IMG/VR virus record: IMGVR_UViG_3300011334_000366
Span: 1-28,991 of that record
DNA length: 28,991 bases
From: a virus
Taxonomy: Duplodnaviria > Caudoviricetes
Reading direction: 5' to 3' (one strand)
The position numbers and the translations under genes were made by a program. This document shows, one piece after another, positions 1-16,569 of the stretch; position 1 is the first letter of the stretch; each line of letters begins with the position of its first letter. The notes beneath the pieces were generated by a model that saw only the letters and a program-made list of their open reading frames with translations, was not told the DNA's origin and searched no databases.

Positions 1-24
1 AGGTCCTGATCCGTGGGGTTGTTC
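1..24 (+). mobile_element. Right half of an attC-like site (attC0), truncated by the window edge
   Basis: CCTG-ATCCGTGGG(9 nt)-GTTGTTC has the same L'-spacer-GTT geometry as the right arm of the complete site at 217-306. The left arm would lie outside the window. Confidence 0.5.
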
Positions 25-44
25 CCAAGGAAGTCTTGCACGAT

Positions 45-206
45 TTAACGCGCTTCGTCTTCGTGGTAGTTTTCCATGTCGCAAGAGAAGATGTCCACAT
101 ACCCAGTCTCCACGGTGCCACGGTGTCCTGCGTGGTATCCGCTGTTGTAGAGGCGCATCGCCATTCTCAGTAGTGCGCTTGGTTGGTCGTCTTGGGGGTC
201 ATTCAT
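45..206 (-). CDS. Small hypothetical protein (53 aa), possibly truncated by a premature stop
   Basis: Not in the ORF track; translated by hand as MNDPQDDQPSALLRMAMRLYNSGYHAGHRGTVETGYVDIFSCDMENYHEDEAR*. The frame stays open after the TAA (IVQDFLGNNPTDQD) into attC0. Confidence 0.55.
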   Translation of the reverse strand: MNDPQDDQPSALLRMAMRLYNSGYHAGHRGTVETGYVDIFSCDMENYHEDEAR

Positions 207-216
207 AATTCAAAGA

Positions 217-306
217 GGCTAACAATAAAAATGCAGGCAACCGCCGAAGGCAGTCTGCGAGTTGAATTACGCCATCGGCGGCGGTGTCTGATTTTTGACG
301 TTAGCC
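217..306 (+). mobile_element. Integron attC-like site (attC1)
   Basis: R'' GGCTAAC (217-223) and R' GTTAGCC (300-306). Arms AAAAAT-[G233]-CAGGCA-[A240]-CCGCCG pair with CGGCGG-TGTCTG-ATTTTT (one G:T), leaving two extrahelical bases 6 bp apart. Confidence 0.8.
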
Positions 307-509
307 GACTCGCGTTGCCAGACGGATACGGCTATTTCTTCCATCTCGCGGGCGGCATCTTCCGCCGTGATTGCTCCGTGGTGATACCATCGCGTATGCA
401 CAGCCTTGATGTCCCGCAGTGCTTGCTCTCGAATCTCCAACCGTCGGCTAACATCTGCGTGCAGCGAACGGCGGGCCTCTGGTTGCTCTGAGTTTGTCGT
501 GTTGTCCAT
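267..509 (-). CDS. Hypothetical cassette protein (80 aa)
   Basis: ATG lies in the loop of attC2 and the stop in the loop of attC1. It starts 5 nt after the RecT-like stop codon. Confidence 0.7.
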   Translation of the reverse strand: MDNTTNSEQPEARRSLHADVSRRLEIREQALRDIKAVHTRWYHHGAITAEDAAREMEEIAVSVWQRESANVKNQTPPPMA

Positions 510-551
510 AGTCTTTAGTGGTTCGCGCCGTCGCTGACGCAGGCGTGCGCT
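446..551 (+). mobile_element. Integron attC-like site (attC2) with a damaged R' end
   Basis: GGCTAAC-ATCTGCGT-[G461]-CAGCGA-[A468]-CGGCG pairs with CGCCG-TCGCTG-ACGCAG (526-542). GTG is found where GTT is expected. Confidence 0.75.
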
Positions 552-1477
552 CCGCCCGCGTTGTCGGCGTGGTATCTCACCTTGTCGGTAGGCTTCATGG
601 CTTCGAGTTGCGTCTTCATGGTTAGGACAGTGCGAAGCTCAATCTCCGTGCAATCGTCGGGATTGTTTCGCGCATCATCAAGAACGCCGTTGTCTAGTAG
701 CGCGCCGTTGATCGCCGTCCACTTCGTCTTGCTTGCGGTTAGCCATGTCTTCACGGCATCTAGCGCGGAGACTTCCGCCTCTTGAAATAATGATGGAGCC
801 TCATTTTGAATTACCACTTGCTGCGAAAGCTCAGCTTGTGGCGAGGCTCCATTCAACGCAGATGGCTGCGGAGATTGGAAAAGTTTTGATGCGCTGGCGG
901 ATGGCGTTACGTCGCGCATTGGCAGGTCTTGTGCCTCTTCCGCTGTCATCATACCCAACGTGATGTCTGGCGCGTAGAGACGGGCAAAGAACGCAGCAGC
1001 GCGGTATCTAAGCATCAGCTCAGGCATCGTGATCCACTTGCTGCCTGCCTTAGTGCTCCAGCCCTCGGCTTTCGCCATTTCTAGCGTGATCTTTGGACCT
1101 TCCAGCGTGGTGCCGTCTGGCTTGCTTTTAGTCCATGCGATACATGCGCGGTTAGGCTTGCCCTCATCTCCGCTCATGGCGAATTGCAGCGGCTCAAAGC
1201 GTCCGGCTGCATTGACCATCGCAATCAGGAACGTGGCGCGAAATGATGGTCGCCCGTGGATAATGTCGATGTTTTGCAAGACCATGAACGGGTCCGCGCC
1301 GAGTCGTTTGGCGATGTTGATGCCGATGGCACAGTTGGCAATGTTGCCCTGAAACTCTTTGGGAACGAGCGAGCTAGATGCAAACATCTTGGCTTGGCGC
1401 TGTAGCATTTCAAAAGCTGCACTTTCGCGCGCAATCTGGGAGTCTGTAATTTCGGTAGTGGTGATTTGTGTGCTCAT
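515..1477 (-). CDS. recT: RecT/Redbeta-like single-strand annealing recombinase
   Basis: Motifs SSLVPKEFQG, LGADPFMVLQNIDIIHGRP and KWITMPELMLRYRAAAFFARLYAPD. Start reassigned to ATG 1477 (MSTQITT), after an AC-rich leader and clear of the upstream gene. Confidence 0.8.
   Translation of the reverse strand: MSTQITTTEITDSQIARESAAFEMLQRQAKMFASSSLVPKEFQGNIANCAIGINIAKRLGADPFMVLQNIDIIHGRPSFRATFLIAMVNAAGRFEPLQFAMSGDEGKPNRACIAWTKSKPDGTTLEGPKITLEMAKAEGWSTKAGSKWITMPELMLRYRAAAFFARLYAPDITLGMMTAEEAQDLPMRDVTPSASASKLFQSPQPSALNGASPQAELSQQVVIQNEAPSLFQEAEVSALDAVKTWLTASKTKWTAINGALLDNGVLDDARNNPDDCTEIELRTVLTMKTQLEAMKPTDKVRYHADNAGGAHACVSDGANH
556..593 (+). mobile_element. Possible orphan right arm of an attC-like site (attC3 remnant)
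   Basis: CGGCGTGGTATCTCACCTTGTCGGTAGGC ends in a degenerate R' (GGTAGGC vs GTTAGGC). No matching left arm is visible; it abuts attC2. Confidence 0.35.
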
Positions 1478-1502
1478 TTTCGTTGTGTGTGTGTTGTTGT
1501 GT

Positions 1503-1847
1503 TTACTTCCCTGCCTTGATGTCTGCGCGGTTCTGAGCCGCTGTCGTTTTGTGCTCATACTGAGCGTCGATGTAGAGTTCCTGCGCCTGATCTTCGCATT
1601 CGTTCCACGCCGATCCTGTGACGATTTCAGTGATGTCTGTGCCGCCAGCAAAGATGCCAAGCACGTTGCCTTTCTTGTGCTCGAAAAACACGCCTGGAAC
1701 GCCGCGCATTGCGTCAAGACTGCTGCCATAGCTAATCTCTGGTGTGTTGCCTCCCAAATCCGTCACGTCAATAAGCGCGGCGATTGCGTTAGCCATAGCC
1801 AGCAGTTGCTCTGGCAGGTCGTTGATATTGGTTCCGTTGATTTTCAT
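1503..1847 (-). CDS. Hypothetical protein (114 aa)
   Basis: ATG at 1847 (MKINGTNIND) follows an AC-rich leader and a promoter-like sequence. Confidence 0.7.
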   Translation of the reverse strand: MKINGTNINDLPEQLLAMANAIAALIDVTDLGGNTPEISYGSSLDAMRGVPGVFFEHKKGNVLGIFAGGTDITEIVTGSAWNECEDQAQELYIDAQYEHKTTAAQNRADIKAGK

Positions 1848-1862
1848 AATGTTGTGTGTGTT

Positions 1863-1891
1863 ATTCTGTTTCAAATTTCTTATCCTGACAA
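1863..1891 (-). promoter_or_regulatory. Sigma70-like promoter
   Basis: Minus strand reads TTGTCA-17 nt-CAGAAT just upstream of ATG 1847. Confidence 0.5.
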
Positions 1892-1976
1892 TCCTGCCAG
1901 CCCTTGTTGTAGGCCGATCGGCGAATGTGATGAATGAGGCGATCCTCAATAATGCCCTGCCGCCAAATGAAGCAGG

Positions 1977-2006
1977 TAAAAGCGGCGGTCGCAAATAGCG
2001 AGCCGC
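1977..2006 (-). terminator. Possible intrinsic terminator after the RHH gene
   Basis: GC-rich hairpin GCGGCTCGC-TATTT-GCGACCGC followed by CGCTTTT. Confidence 0.35.
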
Positions 2007-2033
2007 AAAGAAGGCACAAGATATTTTCCATGC

Positions 2034-2231
2034 TCATTTTGCAGCTCCTTTCTTTGGAGCTTTGTGCTTAAGCAGCGCGGCCATGCGCTCTGATGGTTGG
2101 TTAAGAAGGGCTGGCAGCGCTTCGTGCAGGAGCTGTCCTGCCATGCTGCGACTCTGGAAAGCAGCGGTTTTCTGAATGCGCTCATACACTTCTGGGTGCG
2201 AGCTTAAATCAATGGTGATGCGTGTCTTCAT
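2034..2231 (-). CDS. Arc/MetJ-like ribbon-helix-helix DNA-binding protein
   Basis: MKTRITIDL (alternating beta strand), PEVYERIQKTAAFQ (helix), SRSMAGQLLHEAL (RS turn plus helix), and a basic tail. Confidence 0.7.
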   Translation of the reverse strand: MKTRITIDLSSHPEVYERIQKTAAFQSRSMAGQLLHEALPALLNQPSERMAALLKHKAPKKGAAK

Positions 2232-2232
2232 G

Positions 2233-2460
2233 TTAATTGTTCAAATATTGTTGCTGTGCGTCTTGGACCTCGTTGGTAGGTAGCTTAAGCCACTCGCCCT
2301 CGTCATCAGTGTATTCGATGATGGTTGGAATGTAGCTATTCGGCCCGTTATACTTGCGGACTTGGTTGGAAAACTTGTCTTGTGCAATAACTGCTGCCTT
2401 GAGTGAGCGATGATTGCTCACACTGCGACGGTTAAAGGTATCGTAGATGCGGTATTTCAT
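2233..2460 (-). CDS. Hypothetical early protein (75 aa)
   Basis: ATG at 2460 (MKYRIYDTFNRR) after an AC-rich leader; tightly packed against the RHH gene. Confidence 0.7.
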   Translation of the reverse strand: MKYRIYDTFNRRSVSNHRSLKAAVIAQDKFSNQVRKYNGPNSYIPTIIEYTDDEGEWLKLPTNEVQDAQQQYLNN

Positions 2461-2492
2461 ATTCGTGTTGTGTTTGGTTTCGACTACCCAGG

Positions 2493-2521
2493 ATAGAACC
2501 ACACGTCCTGACCATCGTCAA
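2493..2521 (-). promoter_or_regulatory. Putative early promoter
   Basis: TTGACG-17 nt-TTCTAT with an AT-rich upstream tract. The -35 match is good and the -10 match is weak. Confidence 0.45.
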
Positions 2522-2550
2522 ACACATTCTGCGCATTTTGTGCAAAATAA

Positions 2551-2865
2551 TCATAAATGCAAACAATTGGCAACTAGCTTACTGTTCTGTGTTTGCGTGA
2601 TGAACGACTTCACTTCTGCGATGGCATCAGCATCCTCGTGCTTCGACCATAAGTAATCGCTGCCCCATTGAGCTTTGCGGTCCTCATATTCTGCCCACAG
2701 GACAGCGAGCATTTTATCTCTCGCCGCCAGTTGTCGGGCGATGTCACTCTTAGCGTGCAGTGATTCAGATGTCATCGCGCAGACGTGGCGGATGTAGTGC
2801 TCCCCGAGGCTTTCGGAGTCTTGGGCCGGATACACAGAACCAGCGGCTGGAGAGGAACGGCTCAT
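2551..2865 (-). CDS. Hypothetical cassette protein (104 aa)
   Basis: ATG lies in the attC4 loop. The core HYIRHVCAMTSESLHAKSDIARQLAARD resembles a small phage hypothetical family (recalled, not searched). Confidence 0.7.
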   Translation of the reverse strand: MSRSSPAAGSVYPAQDSESLGEHYIRHVCAMTSESLHAKSDIARQLAARDKMLAVLWAEYEDRKAQWGSDYLWSKHEDADAIAEVKSFITQTQNSKLVANCLHL

Positions 2866-2919
2866 AGCGTTTTGTTGGTGTTTTCGAGGTCGAGCGTTCG
2901 CCGTCCCTCATCCTTACTG
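2585..2919 (+). mobile_element. Integron-like gene cassette inserted at the end of the amidase gene
   Basis: Starts at G^TTCTGTGT (2584-2592), the exact reverse complement of ACACAGAAC (2832-2840) at the attC4 R''. Ends at G^TTATAC (2919). Confidence 0.7.
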
Positions 2920-2925
2920 TTATAC
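2834..2925 (+). mobile_element. Integron attC-like site (attC4)
   Basis: ACAGAAC-CAGCGGCT-[G]-GAG-[A]-GGA-[A]-CGGC ... GCCG-TCC-CTC-ATCCTTACT(9 nt)-GTTATAC. Confidence 0.7.
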
Positions 2926-3495
2926 AGCGCCCTTAAAGCCACAAGCCTCGCGCAGTTTAACCATTGGAAAAGCTGGCCCTGGATCATTCTTTCGGTTAGG
3001 CGCGCAGTCTTCATGACCGATGATGTCATCGAGCTTGTAGTGAGCTACAAGCGCCTTTGCCACCTCTTCCAACGCTGCGATTTGCGCCGGTGGGTATGCT
3101 TCCCACTTTTGCACCGGCCCACCGTTTTTGTGCGCGGCCTTGACCAATGGTAGCTTGCTCCACCGTTTTGCCAGCGCTGCATTGTCACCGGCATTAGCCA
3201 GCTCGATGCCAATAGAGCAGGCGTTTAGACCATCAAAGCCTTTCCACTTGCTCTTGCCTGCGTGACCACACGTTCGGTTAAACGCACGGCATTGATACAC
3301 CTTGCCGTCTCGATCAATGACGATGTGAGCGCTCGCACCATTTGCCTCAAGTGAGCGCCAAAAATTGATGCTGCTGATTGCTGTCGCGCCAGATGTGAAA
3401 TGGATGACGAGAAACCGACGCACCGGCATTGGAGCACCGCCAGGAATCAGCTCGTAGTTTGCGCGGTTGAGGAAATGTTTATCAGTGATTGTCAT
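2920..3495 (-). CDS. N-acetylmuramoyl-L-alanine amidase (Amidase_2/AmpD-like endolysin)
   Basis: Zn-amidase motifs VIHFT, ASAHIVIDRDG, HAGKS, SIGIEL and GHED..PNRKNDPG. Start set at ATG 3495. Confidence 0.92.
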   Translation of the reverse strand: MTITDKHFLNRANYELIPGGAPMPVRRFLVIHFTSGATAISSINFWRSLEANGASAHIVIDRDGKVYQCRAFNRTCGHAGKSKWKGFDGLNACSIGIELANAGDNAALAKRWSKLPLVKAAHKNGGPVQKWEAYPPAQIAALEEVAKALVAHYKLDDIIGHEDCAPNRKNDPGPAFPMVKLREACGFKGAV

Positions 3496-3610
3496 TTTGA
3501 TTTTGCTCCTGTTCACGTTCCGCCGCCCTGTCGCAGCTTATAAATAGCGCAATAACGCCGAGCGCACCGACTGCAAGGAATGCGAATACAATGCCGAAAA
3601 AAGTCATCAT
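3482..3610 (-). CDS. Small membrane protein (42 aa), possibly lysis-associated
   Basis: MMTFFGIVFAFLAVGALGVIALFISC is a single hydrophobic segment; ATGA overlap with the upstream gene. Confidence 0.6.
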   Translation of the reverse strand: MMTFFGIVFAFLAVGALGVIALFISCDRAAEREQEQNQNDNH

Positions 3611-4368
3611 GGTCGGTCGTCGTCCAGCTTGTTGTGGTGTTGCGCGTCCATGAGAATATTCACACACGCGCCGATGTGGGCGAGATGCGACTGCCCGCTT
3701 TCCTTGTCGGTGTCTTCCCGCTCATGCCAAGCGGCTAAGTGGCGATGGATTGCAGAGATGTAAGTCGAGGCACACACGCGAGTCTTGCGCCAGTTCCAAG
3801 GTCCATACTTCTTGTTACCGAGTCCATGCACCCAAGCGACTGCGCGGAGAGCAACGGGAGGCAGCAGCCACATCGGCGCTTTAGTCTTGCCAATCTCGCC
3901 CTTCGGATCGGTGCCGATTGGAGCGACTGTTGATGCTGGCTCGCGATTGAGCAGGTCGCGGCATGCTTGGCCGATTGCCCCGCCCCATTGTGCCAACTCC
4001 TCAAGACTGCGGTCCGGCGTTGGCGGAACAAGCGCAGGCGTGCCGCTTGGCACCTCCTCAAAATGCACAGGAATCCCGCGCCATTCGGCAAGCGCGACCT
4101 CTGCCGATGCGCCTTTGCTTTGCTCCCATCCTGCCAGCGCGTAGAGCGCGTCAACGTGCATCACTGCGTCAATGTCACGACGCATTGCATCGCGTAAAAA
4201 CTCCGGCGTGACGATGCCGTCATCAGGATCAAAACCAAGATCACGATCCATGTCGGCGGGGCTAATCACATTCCAGTCGCGTTCCAGGTAGTCGCGCGCA
4301 GCGTCAAAGGCTGGAAAGTTGAACTCTGGATAGCCCGTCATCGGGCCAGCAATGTAGATCGAGCGCAT
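3607..4368 (-). CDS. Fusion of DUF4406 (nucleoside deoxyribosyltransferase-like) and DUF5664-type dATP/dGTP diphosphohydrolase domains
   Basis: N-terminus IYIAGPMTG..FNFPAF..GWEQSKGASAE; C-terminus GNKKYGPWNWRK..HLAAW..DKESGQSHLAH; Pro-rich linker between them. Confidence 0.82.
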   Translation of the reverse strand: MRSIYIAGPMTGYPEFNFPAFDAARDYLERDWNVISPADMDRDLGFDPDDGIVTPEFLRDAMRRDIDAVMHVDALYALAGWEQSKGASAEVALAEWRGIPVHFEEVPSGTPALVPPTPDRSLEELAQWGGAIGQACRDLLNREPASTVAPIGTDPKGEIGKTKAPMWLLPPVALRAVAWVHGLGNKKYGPWNWRKTRVCASTYISAIHRHLAAWHEREDTDKESGQSHLAHIGACVNILMDAQHHNKLDDDRP

Positions 4369-8004: not shown

Positions 8005-11000
8005 TTACTCGCTCAGACGCTTTTGGATTTTGCGAGCTTCGCGCAACACGTTAGCGCCGACATCGACAGCGCCACCAGCAGGGCCAATGGCGGCAGACAT
8101 GCCAGCGCCTAAAGCCGTAGAAGATGAATCGAGCGCATCCATGAAATCGTCGGCATCGTCTGGATTGAAAAGCTCATCCATGTTCTTGCCGCCTTTAAGC
8201 AGGTCATTTGCAACTTTACTTGCAAGGTCATCGGCTGGAAACACGCGAAGGCCAAGCAATCCACGGCCTATCTTGTCAGCTAGTCGGCCAAACACAAACA
8301 GTCCATTGATGGGGCCGAGAGCAAGCGCAAGCGTCCACTGTTCACGACTGAGTTCGCGATCACGATCTTCATCGTCACCAAGCAGCGAGGCTATTACGAC
8401 CGCCATCACCTGCGACACGCCAGCTTGCACAAAATGAGCCACAAATGCCCGCTGAATATCCAGCGTCTTGTTCTTCGATTTGCCCGTTGCCAGCCTGCGA
8501 ATTGCCATCAGCTCAATTGCCAGCGCCTTCCGTTGGTCAGAGACAAACATCGACATCGACTTCATAAACGGATTGCCAGACCGTTCACTGAGCGACCGAG
8601 CGTAAACGTCGGAAGGTTGCGCTGAGGTAGCGATCATTTTCTCTACTCGTGCAATGGCTTTGGCATCAGCGATCTCTGGCGTCATTTGCGAATTGTCGCG
8701 CATGTATCCACGACGGTAGTAGTCAAACGAAATGGCAGCACCTAACGCCGTCCATCCGCCGTCAACCATACTCATCGGCATCATGCCCGCTTGCATGGCA
8801 ACGATGGCTTGCGAGCCTGTCATGCCTGCGCCCTGCATTGCCACGCGAGATTCAGCCGAGAATCCTGCTTCAATGCGGCGTCTAATGATGTCAGATGACC
8901 ACATTGCCGAGACTTCCTTGGCAAACGACTGCGGCTCTATAAATGCGCGAGCCATGCCCATCATGTAGTTATGAGCAGGCACGTCAGCAATCAGCGGATT
9001 TAACAGCGCCGGTGTCTGCTTAATGATAGGCGAAAGGCGGAAGGCCAAGCCTTTGTATGAGCGGTATTGCATGAACCAGCGCCAGACTCGCGAGATGTTT
9101 ACAAGCTCGCTGGCTGAGTTCGTGCCGTTTTTCTCAATTGTTTTGACGTCATCTTTTAGCCTTTGCAGATAGCCCTCACTTTTCTTTTGGCGAATAGCAA
9201 CTGCGGTGTCCTTGTCCAGCAAGATAGCCTTCATGTCGCGCATGAGTTCAGCGTGCGAAACCCAGTGCGATACATTTTCCCAATGCGCCAGGAACACGGC
9301 TAGCGCGTCCATCTCAACAAGTGAAGCCGTCGTGTTGACGCGAGCCTTTACAAAGCCAGCAGCAAGTCCACTGTTCATGTCAGAGCCATCAATATCCATA
9401 ATGTCTCCGCCCGTGCTCATATTGCGCCGATGGATTGGCGAATAGTTCTTAATGCGTGGGAGTGGTGCGTTAAAGAGCTTGCGGTAAATTGGATCAATCA
9501 TGCCAGCCGCATCTTGATAGCTGCCAGAAATCCAGCGGCCCAAAGCCTTAGCCTCTGGCGATAGGAATTCTTCAAGCTGTTTGAAGCTATCGGCATCCCA
9601 ACCGTCGCGCTCCATTTGTTTACGGCTAGCATCCTGCATCGACCAGAGCCACCATTGAATACCTTGCGTCTCGCTCATTGTGCGTTCAACCGGCGTGCCT
9701 GCGTTGACCACCTTTTCAATAGTCACCGTGCTCTTGCGTGCGTTTGCGGCAAACTCTTCAAGCGCTGCATCTACTTCGTATTGCTCAAGCCCTGCCGTCT
9801 CCGCGCTCATAGTGCCGTCATTGAGCTTTGTCAGCGTCTCAATATCGAGCTTCACCTCCTCTTTTTTCACTCGGCGCGTGGAGATTCCAGACTGCTTAAC
9901 CTTTTGCAATTCAGCAATACCGCGAGCGTGAGCAAATTTGCTGTCAGAGTTAAAGATGATCGAAAGCGCATCCTTTTTCTGAGCTTCAACCAGCCGCTTA
10001 ATGTCAGTCGAAAGGTTGGCCGCATTGATAATCTTTTCCGCAAAGTAATTCAGAATCTTAGAGTCTTCGCCAAAGATCAGTTCAAGCCGCTGGATTGTAG
10101 TCCATAGCGCCTCGCTCAACATTCCGCGCAGATTAAGCAGCGCACGCTTAAAGACGCCCTTGTTCAAGTTCGTGATGTTGTCGGCAACGTCAGGATTCAA
10201 CTCGTCACCGGCAAGGATAGACGATTGCGCCGATTGACGCATCTCGGTAAGCATTTCTTTGCGCGCTTCGTCAATGATCTTCTTGCCGAGCTTGCCAGCT
10301 TCGATGGTGTCATTAAGCCAGTTAAAAGCAGACTCGCGGGAAGCTGAGTCTTTGTCGCTATACATGTCAAACAAGCGAGCGATGCCAAGTTTCGTTAGCG
10401 CATCCTGCACCTCGTTGGCGTCTTCTGATTCCTCAGCCTTCTTCTCAAGCGCGGCCTGCCTGTCGGATTGCTCTTCGATGCCCAGCTTAATGAACTCGGC
10501 AGCGTAATCGACCTGCTCCGTAGCTGTGGAGATGATCTTTCCAGTGATGCGCCCGCTTGCGTCCTTCTGCGATTTGAAGCGCTTTAGAAGCTTGTCGGTA
10601 GCCTCGCCATACTGATCCTTGAGATGCTTCTCCAGCAACACCTGGCCGCGCTCAAGCTGCTTCTGCAGCACCTTCAACCGTGCCGACTCCGATGCCTTGC
10701 GAGCCAGCGCAACAAATCCGCCGATCTTTCCACGGATCTCCTGCGGGAACATGGCAATGATAGCTTCCAGGGTAATGAGATCGCGCACCAGCGATTCGCG
10801 CGGCGACCAGTCTTCTTTCTGCATTGCGTCTGTCTCGTTGCGCCATGCTTGCGCTTCTTTACGAGCTTGCTCAAACGCTGCTCTTTCAACAGCCTTGACC
10901 GCATCTTCAGCCTTAGCATAGCCAGCCTTTGCCGTGCGATGGGATTTAATGGATGACTCCAAAGCCGCCCACATTTCGGAGGCGTAATCAAAGCCGAGAT

Positions 11001-14000
11001 TGTTTGCCATCACGTCAGGCATAATGCCACCAGCCCTTGCGTAAAACTGAGGAGGCAACCATCCAGCATCGTCATACTGATCTTTAATGCCGCGCCCTTC
11101 ACGTTCAGCCGTAGCCTTCGACATGAGCTTCCCGTTGTCGTTGAGCATCCTTGCAATCAACGGGTCATCCTGAAGCGTGCCAACGCCTTCAGAATACGCC
11201 AGCAGCGTTTCAGTCGTGAGCTTATCCATACCCTCATGGGTAAGCTCAACCTCGCGTTGCGCCTGCCGCATAGCCTGCTCCTTGTCCAATGACTTCACCG
11301 TGCGCTTCTCGCTAATCGGCCTGATCTTATTGCCTTGCGGTGTCCAGCGCTCGTTACTCCACTTGTCAGCAAGCTTGGCAAACTGGCGAATTACGCGAGA
11401 TTTGACCTTAAGCGCGCCGACTGGGTTCTCTGCAAACTGCTTCTCTACTTGGTCGCTGAGTTCGTTTAGGTTGCGGACGGGTGAGATACTGAAGGATTGA
11501 CCTGCAAATTCTGGCGTTTCGCCATTTGCCCAACGTGTCAGCAATCCGTTTACTTTGCCCCATTTGCCGCCATTTAACTGCATTGATGAACGGTTTCTAG
11601 CATCGTCCTCAAGGTCAATATAAGCACCGTCAGCAGCCACAACAATAGATTTAAGCACAGACGCTTGAGCCGCCGTAATTTTAGCTCGACTGTGCATTGA
11701 AATCATGCCGCTTCTAGCATCAACACGAACAGCACCAAGGCGAAGAAAACCGACCATGCGTTCCCAATTCTCTTGGTAATCAGGCATATCCTGCCATTCA
11801 ATTTCGCGATGATCAACGCCTCGTTGATCCTTCATCCAATCGCGCCCACTGACAACCCTAAAAACCAAGTCTGGCCCTTGTTTAAAATCTCCAACATCAG
11901 CGCGCCCCGTAAAATCAAGCATCGTTCCATCTGGCAAAACGTAGCCAGCCTCATAAATTGAGCGCGTGATACCATGGCGTTTTTTAACTTCTGCAAAAAT
12001 GTCAGCGGCAGGCTTTCCGTTGATGGATGGAGCAACCTTATTTTCTGGCGTGATGCGCTCTTCTTCTGAGACGCGTGAGATGCTAAACCGAATGTCAGGC
12101 GTTGCCTCGTTAAACCGTTGAGATAGCGGGATGATGTTGCCTGCATCGTCATAGGTTATTGGGTCGGCGGATTTGATTTGGTCTGGCTTAAAGACAGCAT
12201 AATGATTTGATGGCCGATTATTTAGATTAACGGCATCATCTAAATTCTTGAACAAAACGCCAGTTTTTCCAGCACGTTGAGCTTTGAGAAGCTGATTTGT
12301 GATACCCTTATCAGTATCTCCATCACTCAATTCTTGTGGAGTTTTGCCTTTAGCATCAAACTCTAAAAAGTCACCCTTTAGATAAGTGGAAACTACTTTA
12401 GCAGATTCACGGCGTTTAAGAGCAGATTCATAATTGTCTAAGCTTTCAGCCTCTTGTATAGCAGCATCATAACCGTCCCAATCGCCACGCTTTTCAGCCA
12501 ATTCAGCTTTTTTAAGCGCATCTTTTACTGGGCCTTCTTCTGCTGCATAAACTGCATAAGCCTTTGCGGTCGCTTCGTCATCCGTAAAGAAAAAAGCAAT
12601 CTTTGCGCTCTTGGCGTCTGTGCTAGAACCTCCTCTTTTTTTATCAAAGATAGAAAACTCTGCACCAGTTCCGTGATAAAGCTTTGGAGAGTTATAACCA
12701 GCACTCATTGCCAATTGATCAACCAACCTCTGAGCCGTCTCAGTATCACCAGCCTTAGCAGCAGCGAGATACTCAGCGTCTTGCGCGGGCGAGATGGAGA
12801 AGGTCGGGACTGAATCCACCTTCTGCCCATTCTTCTCAAGAATCTTCACAAGGTTCTCGTCGAAGATGACATAGTTGCTCGTGCCATCACCTGCTGCGCG
12901 ACTGCCGCCATCGAGGTAACGGATGCCAGGGATACCGATGGATGCTAAATGTTCAGATGCTGCTTTTGCGATTTCTTCCGGCGTGGCCTTGCCTTGCAAT
13001 CCTTTAACCAGTTTGTAAAAGCCAGCGCCACTTCCATTAGCTTCCTCCAACTGCATTTCTATCGCTGCATCCATGTTAATAGGCGAGCGATTGAAGCCAA
13101 GCCTCACGGCTTCTCTTCGCTGCCTTTCCTCAAGCGCTAAAAGTTTCTCGCGTGTCGTTGTCGCAAGCGTAGCCATTAATTCCGAGGCAGCGTCTCTAAC
13201 CTTCTCGTTCTGCTCTGAAAGCGGCTTGTCCCAATCAAGGAACTCATCCTCGTCTGGCAGTAGCTCGACGGTGTAGAGATTGCCGCCCGTTTCTGTTTTA
13301 ATAAAATTGCCGTAATCTTTTTCTACTTGTCTGGCAAATAATACACTAGGAGTAGGAGGATCCTTGGACATCATGTCGCCATAAGTAGCGCCAAGAAATG
13401 CTTTCCTAACGCTGTCTCCCTGCGATCCGTATTGTGTATTACCCGCTACAGATTCAAGCCTTAACTGAAGCCTCGCTGCTTCATCGTTGTTCGGATAAAG
13501 CTCTGTTAGAGTTTTGCCGTTAAACCCTATGCGAAACTCTTTCTGTAATTTGCCTCTGTAATCATCAGCAACCTTAAAGCTCTTTGCAAAGTAAAGACCC
13601 CAGCCAAAAGCTTGCGCGCCTTCACCTGTGCCAATATTTGCCATGCGAAAGCGATCTATTTCATGCGGCGTGCCGTGGTAGACTTCAATGGAGAACGTAG
13701 TCGGGCCAACGAGTTGCGCCCCGTCTGGCATCTCGGTGACGTTGGATGTGTCAGCAGGTTGTGCGCGGCTTGTGCTAAACGCCATATTCCCAGCATCAAT
13801 CACCGCCTGCGTTTCCTCGTCGATGCCAAGCATTGCCCTGCCCTCATCAATAGCTTGCGACTCCATTTGCTTTACCTCGTCAATGCCGAGGACTTTATTG
13901 ATAAAAGTGTCGTATTCCTCACCGAGCTTGCCCTCGTCGCGAGCTTTGGTGATAGCGTCCACCGTGCCAAATACGCCCTTAAGGTAGGCGGTAAACGCCT

Positions 14001-16569
14001 TGATTGCAGCCAGAATGCTTTTCAGTGCGCTGGCCTCTTCTTGGGTATTAGCGCCCATGACAGATGCTTCGATGGCGCGAGAGATTGAGCCTGGCTTCAT
14101 GCCTGTGGCGCGGCCTTGTCGATCACGTCCAAGCACGTCACGAATGACCATCTCAGACACGGTTTCGCGCAGCATGGTTTCATTGCCTTGACCGTTCGCT
14201 AGCGTGCGCAGATTGGCGATGAATTGCGCCTCTTCGGCGTTCAGTGCCGTCACGCCTTCAAATGCTGGCAGCAATGCGCCCATCGCCCTGCGTGTCTCCT
14301 GATCTGAGAACGTGCCGTTTGTCATGCCGAGCCTCCAAGTCGATTCAAAGCTCTCATGCAGGAAAGTGATGACCTGCGGCTGGCCTTCAGACTGCGACTT
14401 GTAGAGATTCATCTGGCGGACAATCTCCTTTGCGCCATCAGCCACGCGCATCGGAAAGACCTCATTGGAGCCGTTGATGTGAGCAAAGACGCCCTGCGTG
14501 CCTGTCTTAATGCCAGCGACTTCCGCCTCTGCGCGGACGGTTTCGAGAGCTTGAGGGCCAAGCTGACGTTGGGAGAGGATAGCGCCGCCAGCATCGCGAC
14601 GAGTAGCCACAACTCCAACCGCTTCAATATTAGACGCTTGAACAGTCTCGCCCGTAAGCACGGTTTCGGCCTGCTTGCCCTGCTCGTAATAGCCATCAAT
14701 CACGCTCACCAGCGTATCGGCTTCCTCTTGGCTTCCGACTTGGCGAAGATCAACCGCAATACGGCGAGCGGCTTCGGCAGATTCCACGGGAATGATCGTT
14801 CCTTCGCCGGTCGTCACCTGCCAGCCCGTAGGCGTGCGCGTGACGCTTGCGGTATATTCTGGCGAGGTTGTTTGCAATCCCTCGGCGCTCACTTGCTCTT
14901 TTTGCAGTCCCCTCAGACGTTCAGCCGCTTGCATCCTCTGCTCTGCCGTTGCTTTGACCTGCGCCACATTATCACCCTTAGCGTTAATCTTTGCCCAATC
15001 GCCGCGCATCGCATCCTCCGCCTCGCTCCATTTACCAGCGTTTGCCAGCTCGCTGATTTTAGCGGCGGATTCAGGCGAATACTGAGCAGCAATCAGCATG
15101 TCAGTCGAGCGTGCCATTTGACGGCCTGCGCGGAAGTCTGACAACTGACCAGTCCCAGCGCCCACAATTGCGAGCGGAAGGATGGTTGAAATCAATTCTG
15201 GCATATTCTGCGCAAACTCACCAAGGAAGCCGTCCCAGTCAGAGCCTGGAATGTCGCTGTTTAACGCACTTGCAATGCTTTGAACTGCCATCGGAGTGAT
15301 GCCTTGCGCGAACTCTTCGCCGACTTCCGTTGCCGTGCCGATTGCCGCCCGTGTCGTAAACATAGAAAGCGCGCCCGTTGCGCTAAAGATTGGCTGAGTA
15401 AACGCACGTTTTAGATTTGGAAGCCTGCCAAATAGGAAGCGATCAGATGCAATTTCTGTAATTGCCTGAATTGGTGCAGAGATAGTAGCAATAGTGTTCG
15501 CGGCATCGCGTGACATCGTTGGATTACTCCGACGAATCTCGTTGTAAGTTGAACGCTGAAAGCTGCCAAGCGTAACAGCCGCGCCCACATAGGGAATAAA
15601 CGATCCGATTGTCATTGGGATGTTTTGAACGGCTCCGCTAATATTCATTCCAGCAAACTCAACGGCCTTTAGCTTTGCAAGATTTCCAATCGAAATTTCA
15701 CGGACATCATCGCGCAAATCCATGTAATCGCCAACTGCTGAAGATGCCGCCAAAACTTCGCCGCTTTGAGCATCTGTAAGAAATAGATTGTTCTTTGCCG
15801 ATGCCTCAATGTCAGACATGGCTACACCAAGAACCGAGCTTGCCGCTGAATCTAAATAACTGCCCAAAAAACGATCAAACTCTTTTGCTAACCTTTGAAC
15901 TGACGATGCGGCAGCAAAATCACTGCCAGCCGCTTGATTTGAAATTGCCTCAAGAACATAGGGGCGATCCTCTTTTGGCACCTTGATTAACTCGCTAGCC
16001 ATCGCGCCCCAGTTCATGCCATCTGGCGCGGTGTCGATATTGCGCGCCATGTCCGTCACGGTTTTAATTGTATTGCGATACGGCGCAACCTTTGCGGCCA
16101 TTTCGTCGTGAGCAGCGCGCGCAAGGCCGAGATAGTTAGTCATTCTGCCTGGAAGCATAGAGCCTGCATTTGCCGTCTCCACTTCGCGAAACTTGCCGAG
16201 CCACGATTCACCGCGAGCGGCAGCAATTCGGGATGCGTTTGCAATTTTGTCTTGCGCCTGATAATCGGCGGCAATCATTCCAAACATGTCGTTATCTGAA
16301 ACATTCGATGCCGCTTGATTCTTAAAGTAGCCACGAGCTATGCCATCCTTAATGCCTTGCCATTCTGGTGACGCAGGATTGACGTGACGATTCAAAGCAA
16401 CGCCAGCCCATCCAGCAACAGCGGAAGACGTGAGAAACGCCTCCTTATCCTCAACCGCTCCGCCAAATGTATTATCATCTAGCAACGCCTTAGCGCCCCC
16501 AAACTCTTGATCTAAAAACGCAGATCGTAAACGCTTGCTGCGTTCTTGTGAGATTTCTTCGGGTGTCAT
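8005..16569 (-). CDS. Giant internal virion/ejection protein (gp16 position); polyvalent protein with two ADP-ribosyltransferase-like modules
   Basis: 2854 aa, third of the ejection-protein trio. ART-like motifs YHGTPH..GWGLYFA and YHGTG..AFFFTDD..QIKSAD; an AGYVLPDG..DHREI module; a degenerate zincin-like LHESFE. Confidence 0.82.
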   Translation of the reverse strand: MTPEEISQERSKRLRSAFLDQEFGGAKALLDDNTFGGAVEDKEAFLTSSAVAGWAGVALNRHVNPASPEWQGIKDGIARGYFKNQAASNVSDNDMFGMIAADYQAQDKIANASRIAAARGESWLGKFREVETANAGSMLPGRMTNYLGLARAAHDEMAAKVAPYRNTIKTVTDMARNIDTAPDGMNWGAMASELIKVPKEDRPYVLEAISNQAAGSDFAAASSVQRLAKEFDRFLGSYLDSAASSVLGVAMSDIEASAKNNLFLTDAQSGEVLAASSAVGDYMDLRDDVREISIGNLAKLKAVEFAGMNISGAVQNIPMTIGSFIPYVGAAVTLGSFQRSTYNEIRRSNPTMSRDAANTIATISAPIQAITEIASDRFLFGRLPNLKRAFTQPIFSATGALSMFTTRAAIGTATEVGEEFAQGITPMAVQSIASALNSDIPGSDWDGFLGEFAQNMPELISTILPLAIVGAGTGQLSDFRAGRQMARSTDMLIAAQYSPESAAKISELANAGKWSEAEDAMRGDWAKINAKGDNVAQVKATAEQRMQAAERLRGLQKEQVSAEGLQTTSPEYTASVTRTPTGWQVTTGEGTIIPVESAEAARRIAVDLRQVGSQEEADTLVSVIDGYYEQGKQAETVLTGETVQASNIEAVGVVATRRDAGGAILSQRQLGPQALETVRAEAEVAGIKTGTQGVFAHINGSNEVFPMRVADGAKEIVRQMNLYKSQSEGQPQVITFLHESFESTWRLGMTNGTFSDQETRRAMGALLPAFEGVTALNAEEAQFIANLRTLANGQGNETMLRETVSEMVIRDVLGRDRQGRATGMKPGSISRAIEASVMGANTQEEASALKSILAAIKAFTAYLKGVFGTVDAITKARDEGKLGEEYDTFINKVLGIDEVKQMESQAIDEGRAMLGIDEETQAVIDAGNMAFSTSRAQPADTSNVTEMPDGAQLVGPTTFSIEVYHGTPHEIDRFRMANIGTGEGAQAFGWGLYFAKSFKVADDYRGKLQKEFRIGFNGKTLTELYPNNDEAARLQLRLESVAGNTQYGSQGDSVRKAFLGATYGDMMSKDPPTPSVLFARQVEKDYGNFIKTETGGNLYTVELLPDEDEFLDWDKPLSEQNEKVRDAASELMATLATTTREKLLALEERQRREAVRLGFNRSPINMDAAIEMQLEEANGSGAGFYKLVKGLQGKATPEEIAKAASEHLASIGIPGIRYLDGGSRAAGDGTSNYVIFDENLVKILEKNGQKVDSVPTFSISPAQDAEYLAAAKAGDTETAQRLVDQLAMSAGYNSPKLYHGTGAEFSIFDKKRGGSSTDAKSAKIAFFFTDDEATAKAYAVYAAEEGPVKDALKKAELAEKRGDWDGYDAAIQEAESLDNYESALKRRESAKVVSTYLKGDFLEFDAKGKTPQELSDGDTDKGITNQLLKAQRAGKTGVLFKNLDDAVNLNNRPSNHYAVFKPDQIKSADPITYDDAGNIIPLSQRFNEATPDIRFSISRVSEEERITPENKVAPSINGKPAADIFAEVKKRHGITRSIYEAGYVLPDGTMLDFTGRADVGDFKQGPDLVFRVVSGRDWMKDQRGVDHREIEWQDMPDYQENWERMVGFLRLGAVRVDARSGMISMHSRAKITAAQASVLKSIVVAADGAYIDLEDDARNRSSMQLNGGKWGKVNGLLTRWANGETPEFAGQSFSISPVRNLNELSDQVEKQFAENPVGALKVKSRVIRQFAKLADKWSNERWTPQGNKIRPISEKRTVKSLDKEQAMRQAQREVELTHEGMDKLTTETLLAYSEGVGTLQDDPLIARMLNDNGKLMSKATAEREGRGIKDQYDDAGWLPPQFYARAGGIMPDVMANNLGFDYASEMWAALESSIKSHRTAKAGYAKAEDAVKAVERAAFEQARKEAQAWRNETDAMQKEDWSPRESLVRDLITLEAIIAMFPQEIRGKIGGFVALARKASESARLKVLQKQLERGQVLLEKHLKDQYGEATDKLLKRFKSQKDASGRITGKIISTATEQVDYAAEFIKLGIEEQSDRQAALEKKAEESEDANEVQDALTKLGIARLFDMYSDKDSASRESAFNWLNDTIEAGKLGKKIIDEARKEMLTEMRQSAQSSILAGDELNPDVADNITNLNKGVFKRALLNLRGMLSEALWTTIQRLELIFGEDSKILNYFAEKIINAANLSTDIKRLVEAQKKDALSIIFNSDSKFAHARGIAELQKVKQSGISTRRVKKEEVKLDIETLTKLNDGTMSAETAGLEQYEVDAALEEFAANARKSTVTIEKVVNAGTPVERTMSETQGIQWWLWSMQDASRKQMERDGWDADSFKQLEEFLSPEAKALGRWISGSYQDAAGMIDPIYRKLFNAPLPRIKNYSPIHRRNMSTGGDIMDIDGSDMNSGLAAGFVKARVNTTASLVEMDALAVFLAHWENVSHWVSHAELMRDMKAILLDKDTAVAIRQKKSEGYLQRLKDDVKTIEKNGTNSASELVNISRVWRWFMQYRSYKGLAFRLSPIIKQTPALLNPLIADVPAHNYMMGMARAFIEPQSFAKEVSAMWSSDIIRRRIEAGFSAESRVAMQGAGMTGSQAIVAMQAGMMPMSMVDGGWTALGAAISFDYYRRGYMRDNSQMTPEIADAKAIARVEKMIATSAQPSDVYARSLSERSGNPFMKSMSMFVSDQRKALAIELMAIRRLATGKSKNKTLDIQRAFVAHFVQAGVSQVMAVVIASLLGDDEDRDRELSREQWTLALALGPINGLFVFGRLADKIGRGLLGLRVFPADDLASKVANDLLKGGKNMDELFNPDDADDFMDALDSSSTALGAGMSAAIGPAGGAVDVGANVLREARKIQKRLSE

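Follow-up and report, generated by a model that had tools for sequence, protein, structure and literature searches.

Introduction

Integrons are known as bacterial devices in which the integrase IntI cuts an attC site's folded bottom strand at G^TT, and this recognition of the bottom strand places the cassette genes downstream of the integron promoter. We know of no settled account of how the cassettes themselves originate.

Clusters of attC sites without intI (CALINs) have been described in phages. The sections of Qi et al. (2023, PMC9892861) on which we draw give 17 of them in 10,705 genomes, and IntI1 recombined five of the six phage attC sites tested, P12002L_attC1 being one of the six and without verified recombination. 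The same sections assign a typical orientation to the sites of TJE1 and PH101 and describe those of P12002L as 'divergent'. According to the parts of Loot et al. (bioRxiv 10.1101/2022.09.11.507474) used here, IntI also inserts single cassettes at short GWT sites outside integrons, and the choice of bottom strand sets cassette orientation. ORF-11 of attI1, as outlined in the relevant section of PMC8876359, is a frame that runs across the crossover; the incoming cassette supplies its stop, and translation of the next gene is coupled to it.

Here we analysed attC sites on a 28,991-bp viral contig, the whole of which is called the window below; its completeness is 76% by the record's own estimate. 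As read from the sequence, the array on this contig is small, partly decayed, reversed and frame-keeping, and it bears residue-exact marks of past shuffling.

Results

attC sites on the phage contig

The contig belongs to a tailed phage whose virion genes (head, tail, head-tail adaptor and internal virion protein) are T7-like, and it also carries genes for an amidase endolysin and a RecT-like single-strand annealing protein. Every phage gene is on the minus strand of the window. The RecT-like gene (515-1474, minus strand; phrog_561, E 1e-73) is a core phage gene located upstream of the array, and 80 viral loci are related to the window by RecT. Riverine metagenomes were among the runs that contained 0.94-0.95 of the first 1.5 kb (contigs of X2 and X6 were examined). 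A promoter scan found five candidates against 2.3 expected, with no clear signal, no Rfam family matched positions 1-4000, and positions 200-620 had no match in GenBank phages. Elsewhere on the contig, 8005-16569 within the virion gene block encodes a 2,854-aa polyvalent-type protein with ART-PolyVal domains. At 3607-4368, a DUF4406 (nucleoside deoxyribosyltransferase-like) domain is fused to a dATP/dGTP diphosphohydrolase domain; this fusion adjoins a metallophosphoesterase gene and may point to base modification.

A structural scan of the window gave only two hits, at 217-306 (score 17.0) and 446-551 (score 15.0), and the same cut-off gave none in 361,787 bases of resampled control DNA (40 loci, one strand). 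Both are imperfect palindromes with, on the plus strand, an unpaired G, six paired bases and an unpaired A, and they have the R''/L''/L'/R' layout with two extrahelical bases 6 bp apart that the original prediction described. Read on the minus strand, the two extrahelical bases are C and T and belong to the bottom strand's 3' arm; in aadA7, G and T are extrahelical at the same places, as listed in a primer table (PMC9892861). The initial GGCTAAC, previously taken for RYYYAAC, is RRYYAAC and thus one base off; the palindromes themselves are as described.

The sites were then scored with a covariance model of our own, trained on 31 bottom-strand sites from other viral and bacterial contigs, from which the window and the closest homologue of attC1 had been left out. 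With this model, whose E-values are rough, the site at 217-306 (attC1) scored 53 bits (E 7e-11) and that at 446-551 (attC2) 33.9 bits (E 2e-6), in support of the prediction. The model also found a third, previously overlooked attC-like site on the same strand at 2834-2925 (29.8 bits, E 2e-5), and the next-best hit in the window reached 13.6 bits. attC1 is intact on the minus strand, where the recombining bottom strand is the coding strand, with R'' at 217-223, R' at 300-306 and a predicted crossover at 300/301. Both AAC/GTT cores are fully present in attC1 and also occur in the third site. attC2, likewise on the minus strand, is composite and ends in a damaged R', GTGCGCT (545-551) instead of GTTRRRY, with GTG in place of the GTT core. 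Bottom-strand folding was expected of both predicted sites and was borne out for attC1 (z -4.89); attC2 reached only -1.72, and the third site, at 0.0, folded no better than shuffles. Positions 221-306 of attC1 are 84% identical to a site in another viral locus (L201) with different genes on both sides.

On these sequence features the sites at 217-306 and 446-551 are real integron-type sites, and attC1 looks to be the sole site of this genome apparently fit to recombine. The arrangement consists of two adjacent sites in the same orientation, as in a CALIN, and a third 2.3 kb away. An array of four sites had been proposed; what is present in that region is two sites plus a remnant, and the notion of integron-type attC sites bounding mobile cassettes stands.

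Polarity and reading frame of the cassettes

Cassette A (245 bp, 301-545) begins with bases that complement its own R'' over 10 bp: as predicted, GTTAGCCGAC (300-309) is the exact complement of 443-452, and each sequence occurs once in the window. Its 80-aa gene (267-509, minus strand) starts in the attC2 loop and stops in the attC1 loop. The attC2 loop contains both the RecT stop (515) and this start (509), six bases past the stop, and the crossover AAC of the attC1 R' is an in-frame Asn codon of the 80-aa protein. The protein matched no Pfam or PHROG family and had no relatives in viral contigs or GenBank phages; when metagenomes were scanned with P0003, the match was limited to the attC-derived N-terminus. 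The damaged R' of attC2 has probably frozen cassette A.

Cassette B (2585-2919) is a single cassette beginning G^TTCTGTGT (2584-2592), which is the exact complement of 2832-2840 over 9 bp. Its 104-aa gene (2551-2865, minus strand) starts in the hairpin loop, and here too the crossover AAC is an in-frame Asn codon. The R' of the third site (2919-2925) includes the stop codon of the endolysin gene, and cassette B with its own attC (2584-2925) sits between this stop and the early genes. On the minus strand, the seven bases that follow both cassette B crossovers are identical (CAGTAAG).

The gene belonging to attC1 (1-206, minus strand) starts 10 nt beyond R'' and has homologues of 79-87 aa. Pfam, PHROGs and the ESM Atlas assigned no function to the cassette proteins and gave weak matches only (phrog_34533 for 2551-2865 and Ead/Ea22-like records for 48-206). 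In seven viral loci that encode distant relatives of the 45-206 protein, the covariance model found no attC.

The hairpins contain the gene stops and most of the starts, the gene of attC1 starting just outside its hairpin. This polarity, with cassette genes on the attC bottom strand and opposite to host cassettes, had been overlooked. In the usual layout a complete top-strand gene ends at or before R''; the genes found here are on the bottom strand and read through R'. The CALIN-like reading was right in that no integrase is in view, and not in implying an ordinary CALIN layout.

We compared cassettes bounded by sites of the same attC family, which were gathered by pattern scans and model searches in viral and bacterial contigs; some of the viral sites had served to train the covariance model used in this collection. 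A cassette was defined as the interval separating two neighbouring sites that lie no more than 1,600 nt from each other, and its orientation was assigned by the longest ORF, which is a crude rule. L296 and L297, from the same genome as L295, were left out together with several smaller bacterial loci, and L224, which has a Klebsiella title, was counted among the bacterial loci. The longest ORF was on the bottom strand in 39 of the 44 viral cassettes, which came from 12 loci, among them the window's own. It was on the top strand in 77 of the 98 bacterial cassettes (12 loci), compared with 5 of the 44 viral ones (Fisher p 2e-14). The L224 contig, whose title names an uncultured Klebsiella, has eight sites of the Verrucomicrobiota-like family in one array and is possibly mis-binned.

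Frames were counted after sites near locus ends had been excluded (58 viral and 105 bacterial sites kept). The frame that reads the crossover as Asn stopped inside the site at all 58 viral sites versus 67/105 bacterial sites, and an ATG frame of at least 45 codons opened in or just after the site at 49/58 versus 28/105. The Asn frame was the longest upstream frame at 44/58 viral and 58/105 bacterial sites (p 0.011), and genes ended at R'' at 78/105 bacterial versus 22/58 viral sites. Reversed viral genes that enter the next site did so in the Asn frame in 24 of 25 cases; among the other reversed viral genes, 11 stop before the next site and 3 use a TAA in R'. Bacterial cassettes called reversed and running into the next site also used the Asn frame (14/15). 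Because bacterial sites favour this frame too, the frame bias is partly a by-product of the attC sequence.

The start of a cassette matched its own R'' better than that of its neighbour in 41 of the 44 viral cassettes and worse in one, as would be expected of composite sites made from circles. The corresponding numbers for the 98 bacterial cassettes were 74 better and 3 worse. G412, the closest complete relative of the phage, and G416 carry reversed sites at other places.

Exchange at the crossover

Relatives had been predicted to differ exactly at G^TT. They do so at the protein level, and at the DNA level in other viral arrays and in one short contig. P0075 and P0076 belong to the 90% cluster of the 80-aa protein. 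Both have the same attC-encoded N-terminus and body as the window protein, and their tails change after the Asn, to ESAN-EH and ESAN-DPSSATRLGEGQK versus ESAN-VKNQTPPPMA in the window. The tails of P0002-P0005 likewise diverge. For the cassette B protein, 55 relatives were compared, two entries identical to the window having been left out. An Asn follows the conserved TQ in 40 of them, with 31 distinct tails after it, and most are extended at the N-terminus by a stretch whose last residues are GS or CS, the R'' codons. For the window's own cassettes, the sequence evidence of shuffling comes from protein comparison.

At the DNA level, two homologous pairs among the other viral arrays end their similarity exactly at the crossover. 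An X11 contig that carries a variant form of attC1 agrees with the window over 268-302 and departs from it at 303. In an X16 relative, the same R'' comes after the 45-206 gene but is joined to a different arm. Circular or excised junctions were looked for and were absent from the contigs of 8 runs. A joint of 67 to 1336, with a 20-letter side, was considered as an excision product and set aside as belonging to another organism.

Borders of the array

The array had been thought to continue past the left edge of the contig, with positions 1-24 as the right arm of a further site. The model gave no hit there, as an arm the stretch ranked 2584 of 57,892 positions (scored although cut by the contig end), and 1-24 was rejected as an attC arm, lying within a reading frame that is continuous in three homologues and four other assemblies. 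The three homologues are 83-89% identical to the 45-206 protein and extend through 1-24. The stop at 45-47 was likewise rejected as the true gene end: four other assemblies (contigs of X1, X2, X11 and X16) have a C at position 47, so that the stop is lost and the gene continues leftward. At positions 1-2 and at the 45-47 stop, the window departs from X1, X2 and X11, which are other assemblies of the same phage, and the deviating bases are probably errors in this contig or a rare variant of it. Continuation of the array to the left is still likely, because the gene belonging to attC1 runs off the contig.

On the other side, 556-593 had been taken for a weaker right arm. It also gave no model hit, ranked 10 of 57,892 as an arm, below several unrelated positions, and is at best a remnant. 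It lies in a 48-bp foreign stretch on the minus strand (546-593) that replaces the normal C-terminus of RecT; relatives lose their match at 593, 594 or 600 (five contigs and L002). In the 8 relatives read, RecT is directly followed by another gene. Across the 80 RecT loci the covariance model gave hits in 5 and none at the RecT/array junction, and a pattern scan of viral contigs for an intact parent of the 556-593 arm returned a single match, inside an unrelated coding region. The foreign stretch may be what is left of a third attC, its right arm and loop, with the core mutated.

The RecT-side border (593/594) is 6 nt off the nearest predicted crossover and was therefore not made by IntI. To judge from the fusion of 546-593 to attC2 without a proper core, ordinary deletion or annealing has also shaped the locus.

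Integrase and host

As noted in the original prediction, no integrase is in view: the window has no PF00589 match. attI and Pc were not seen in the window either, and the left flank is missing, so that the locus does not amount to a complete integron. A tyrosine recombinase was absent from all 5 relatives that are 90-100% complete. Among five array-bearing viral records, the three near-complete genomes had no PF00589 match, and the other two (L244 and G002) do have such a gene. L244 encodes a true IntI (318.7 bits, cut-off 265) beside reversed cassettes and a phage morphogenesis gene; at 557-2450 of this locus (G005), IntI lies directly downstream of the reversed cassette genes and in the same direction, followed by the virion morphogenesis gene. 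The first cassette gene of L244 crosses a likely attI with an in-frame Asn. The IntI-like gene of G002 (229.9 bits, under the TIGR02249 cut-off) comes after an attC site. In G002, 51141-59557 and 173-1412 hold sixteen model hits, and the IntI-like gene would follow the last site if the record is circularly permuted.

Among 121 genomes from the phylum to which G007 belongs (its locus L230 carries the title Verrucomicrobiae), 26 had large arrays of the same attC family. An IntI over the TIGR02249 cut-off was found beside such sites in 3 of the 5 Verrucomicrobia-titled genomes tested. RecT matches in this phylum occurred in 5 of 401 genomes and were only 34-44% identical. As the window and its relatives show no recombinase and this attC family lies beside IntI in Verrucomicrobia, a host IntI acting in trans is likely the enzyme. 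Judged solely by attC type, the host is probably a member of the Verrucomicrobiota.

Discussion

The array is best explained, in our opinion, by reversed integron-type cassettes that are excised, presumably as circles, and inserted at G^TT by a host IntI acting in trans, a reading that we consider probable. In the order of the mRNA, each cassette begins with the crossover C; next come the arm and loop that finish the upstream protein, then the start and the second arm, and last the gene body as far as the next AA. The attC arm and loop supply a short tail and a stop to whichever gene is upstream, the loop or the bases just after it supply the cassette's own start, and the cassette gene runs to the crossover, usually without a stop of its own. 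With the crossover AAC read as Asn in the shared frame, a swap would alter the last few residues only. Swaps would keep the genes coupled within the phage early operon; at a junction of the attC2 type, stop and start would stay close and translation would be coupled. A reversed cassette would face the promoter backwards in a host integron and be aligned with the early operon in the phage.

The same cassettes might instead be served by an intI and attI of the phage's own, located just beyond the left edge of the contig. That side is where they would be expected, on a contig that is 76% complete; L244 has exactly such a layout, and G002 has its IntI-like gene, at 229.9 bits under the cut-off, after an attC site. 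We regard this as unlikely, given that none of the five near-complete relatives encodes a tyrosine recombinase and that another gene comes directly after RecT in the 8 relatives read. It is quite improbable that the sites are integron-derived and exchange is now carried out by RecT-like annealing on similar attC arms as short homologies. The RecT gene is next door, and neither the border at 593/594 nor that at 545-551 is a clean G^TT crossover, but arm annealing would spread the breakpoints over the arm's length, whereas those observed coincide with a single codon across 40 proteins, which have 31 different tails. Moreover, cassette ends match their own R'' by 41 to 1.

Could the array be passive debris of a host integron, picked up once, in which the bottom-strand frames are shadows of host genes? 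The attC family is indeed common in host arrays (26/121 genomes), and the longer frame is on the bottom strand in 21 of the 98 bacterial cassettes too. This explanation is largely refuted, and we hold it to be most improbable: the bottom-strand proteins form conserved families encoded in the same direction as all phage genes, and a search of 401 genomes of G007's phylum, run without a positive control, turned up no member of the cassette B family. Chance hairpins or terminators between genes would account for attC2 and the third site folding little or no better than shuffles. Yet the model scores (53, 34 and 30 bits), the zero control hits, the exact complementarity of the ends and the protein-coding arms leave this a negligible probability, and for attC1 it is refuted.

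A further, tentative suggestion, which we think may well be wrong, is that phages hold their own pool of back-to-front, single-frame cassettes, made from ordinary phage genes by placing an attC in front and copying R'' from the last codons of the gene. Unrelated genes share one attC type; in the cassette B family, many N-termini are attC-derived, and 10 short forms apparently lack such N-termini. The complementarity of cassette ends extends past the 7-bp box by 2-3 bases in 43 viral cassettes (positions 5-7: 0.88, 0.74, 0.60 versus 0.23, 0.40, 0.35), and is weaker but present in the 98 bacterial cassettes. The shared attC type, the varied N-termini and short forms and the extended complementarity would fit such a creation of cassettes from phage genes. 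The short relatives of the form 'M-[IT]-Y-P ... T-Q-x-stop' were not accepted as native genes; they may be cassettes with a stop in R'. If this reading is true, such families would provide before-and-after pairs for the origin of cassettes, and gene families with and without attC arms could make that origin testable.

Under the preferred reading, in which a host IntI acts on reversed cassettes, accessory genes are likely swapped by a borrowed host integrase with their reading frames kept. Reversed, frame-sharing cassettes would be silent in a host array, but a phage operon would express them; this points to a gene pool on the phage side for which the host's own integrase is used. It would also explain a common oddity of small phage proteins, namely variable N- and C-terminal tails around a conserved core. 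With one intact site, two bounded cassettes and residue-exact swaps, the locus would offer a compact test system.

The phage CALINs in the sections of Qi et al. used here (PMC9892861) resemble the window as attC clusters in phages without intI. The window differs in that all of its sites are reversed and the crossover falls on a codon read in frame. By the primer table and the GenBank record, the genes of TJE1 are on the published top strand and forward; at 77-293 of this phage (L312, NC_019930) the cassettes are forward, yet orf1 also ends inside its attC. For P12002L_attC1 (L313, NC_028924, 30010-30060), the bottom strand is on the coding strand of the methyltransferase genes, that is, reversed. 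A reversed site is thus already contained in a published phage CALIN, and the sections in question carry no comment on its polarity or frame. It counts against our reading that, of the six phage sites tested there, this reversed one is the site for which recombination was not verified.

Cassettes of Verrucomicrobiota chromosomes share with those of the phage the R and L boxes, the two extrahelical bases 6 bp apart and the composite R boxes. IntI lies beside those arrays. Their genes are mostly on the top strand and end at R'', whereas in the phage the genes are on the bottom strand with the attC in front. Cassette B stands singly at a GTT overlapping the stop of the endolysin gene and in this resembles a SALIN/attG insertion; in the parts of Loot et al. 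used here SALINs are a matter of bacterial chromosomes, and phage genomes and reversed genes are not treated. In open-licence full-text literature, searched by listings and abstract openings, we found no paper on reversed or frame-keeping phage cassettes, and the parts of PMC11551772, PMC8352920 and PMC5371416 that were consulted hold nothing on phage cassettes. The nearest precedent for a frame across the crossover, on the relevant section of PMC8876359, is ORF-11. ORF-11 is a short leader peptide in attI on the top strand, whereas in the phage whole proteins are read across every attC crossover on the bottom strand. Phage CALINs are known, and what is apparently new, in the literature searched, is that their cassettes can be reversed and frame-keeping.
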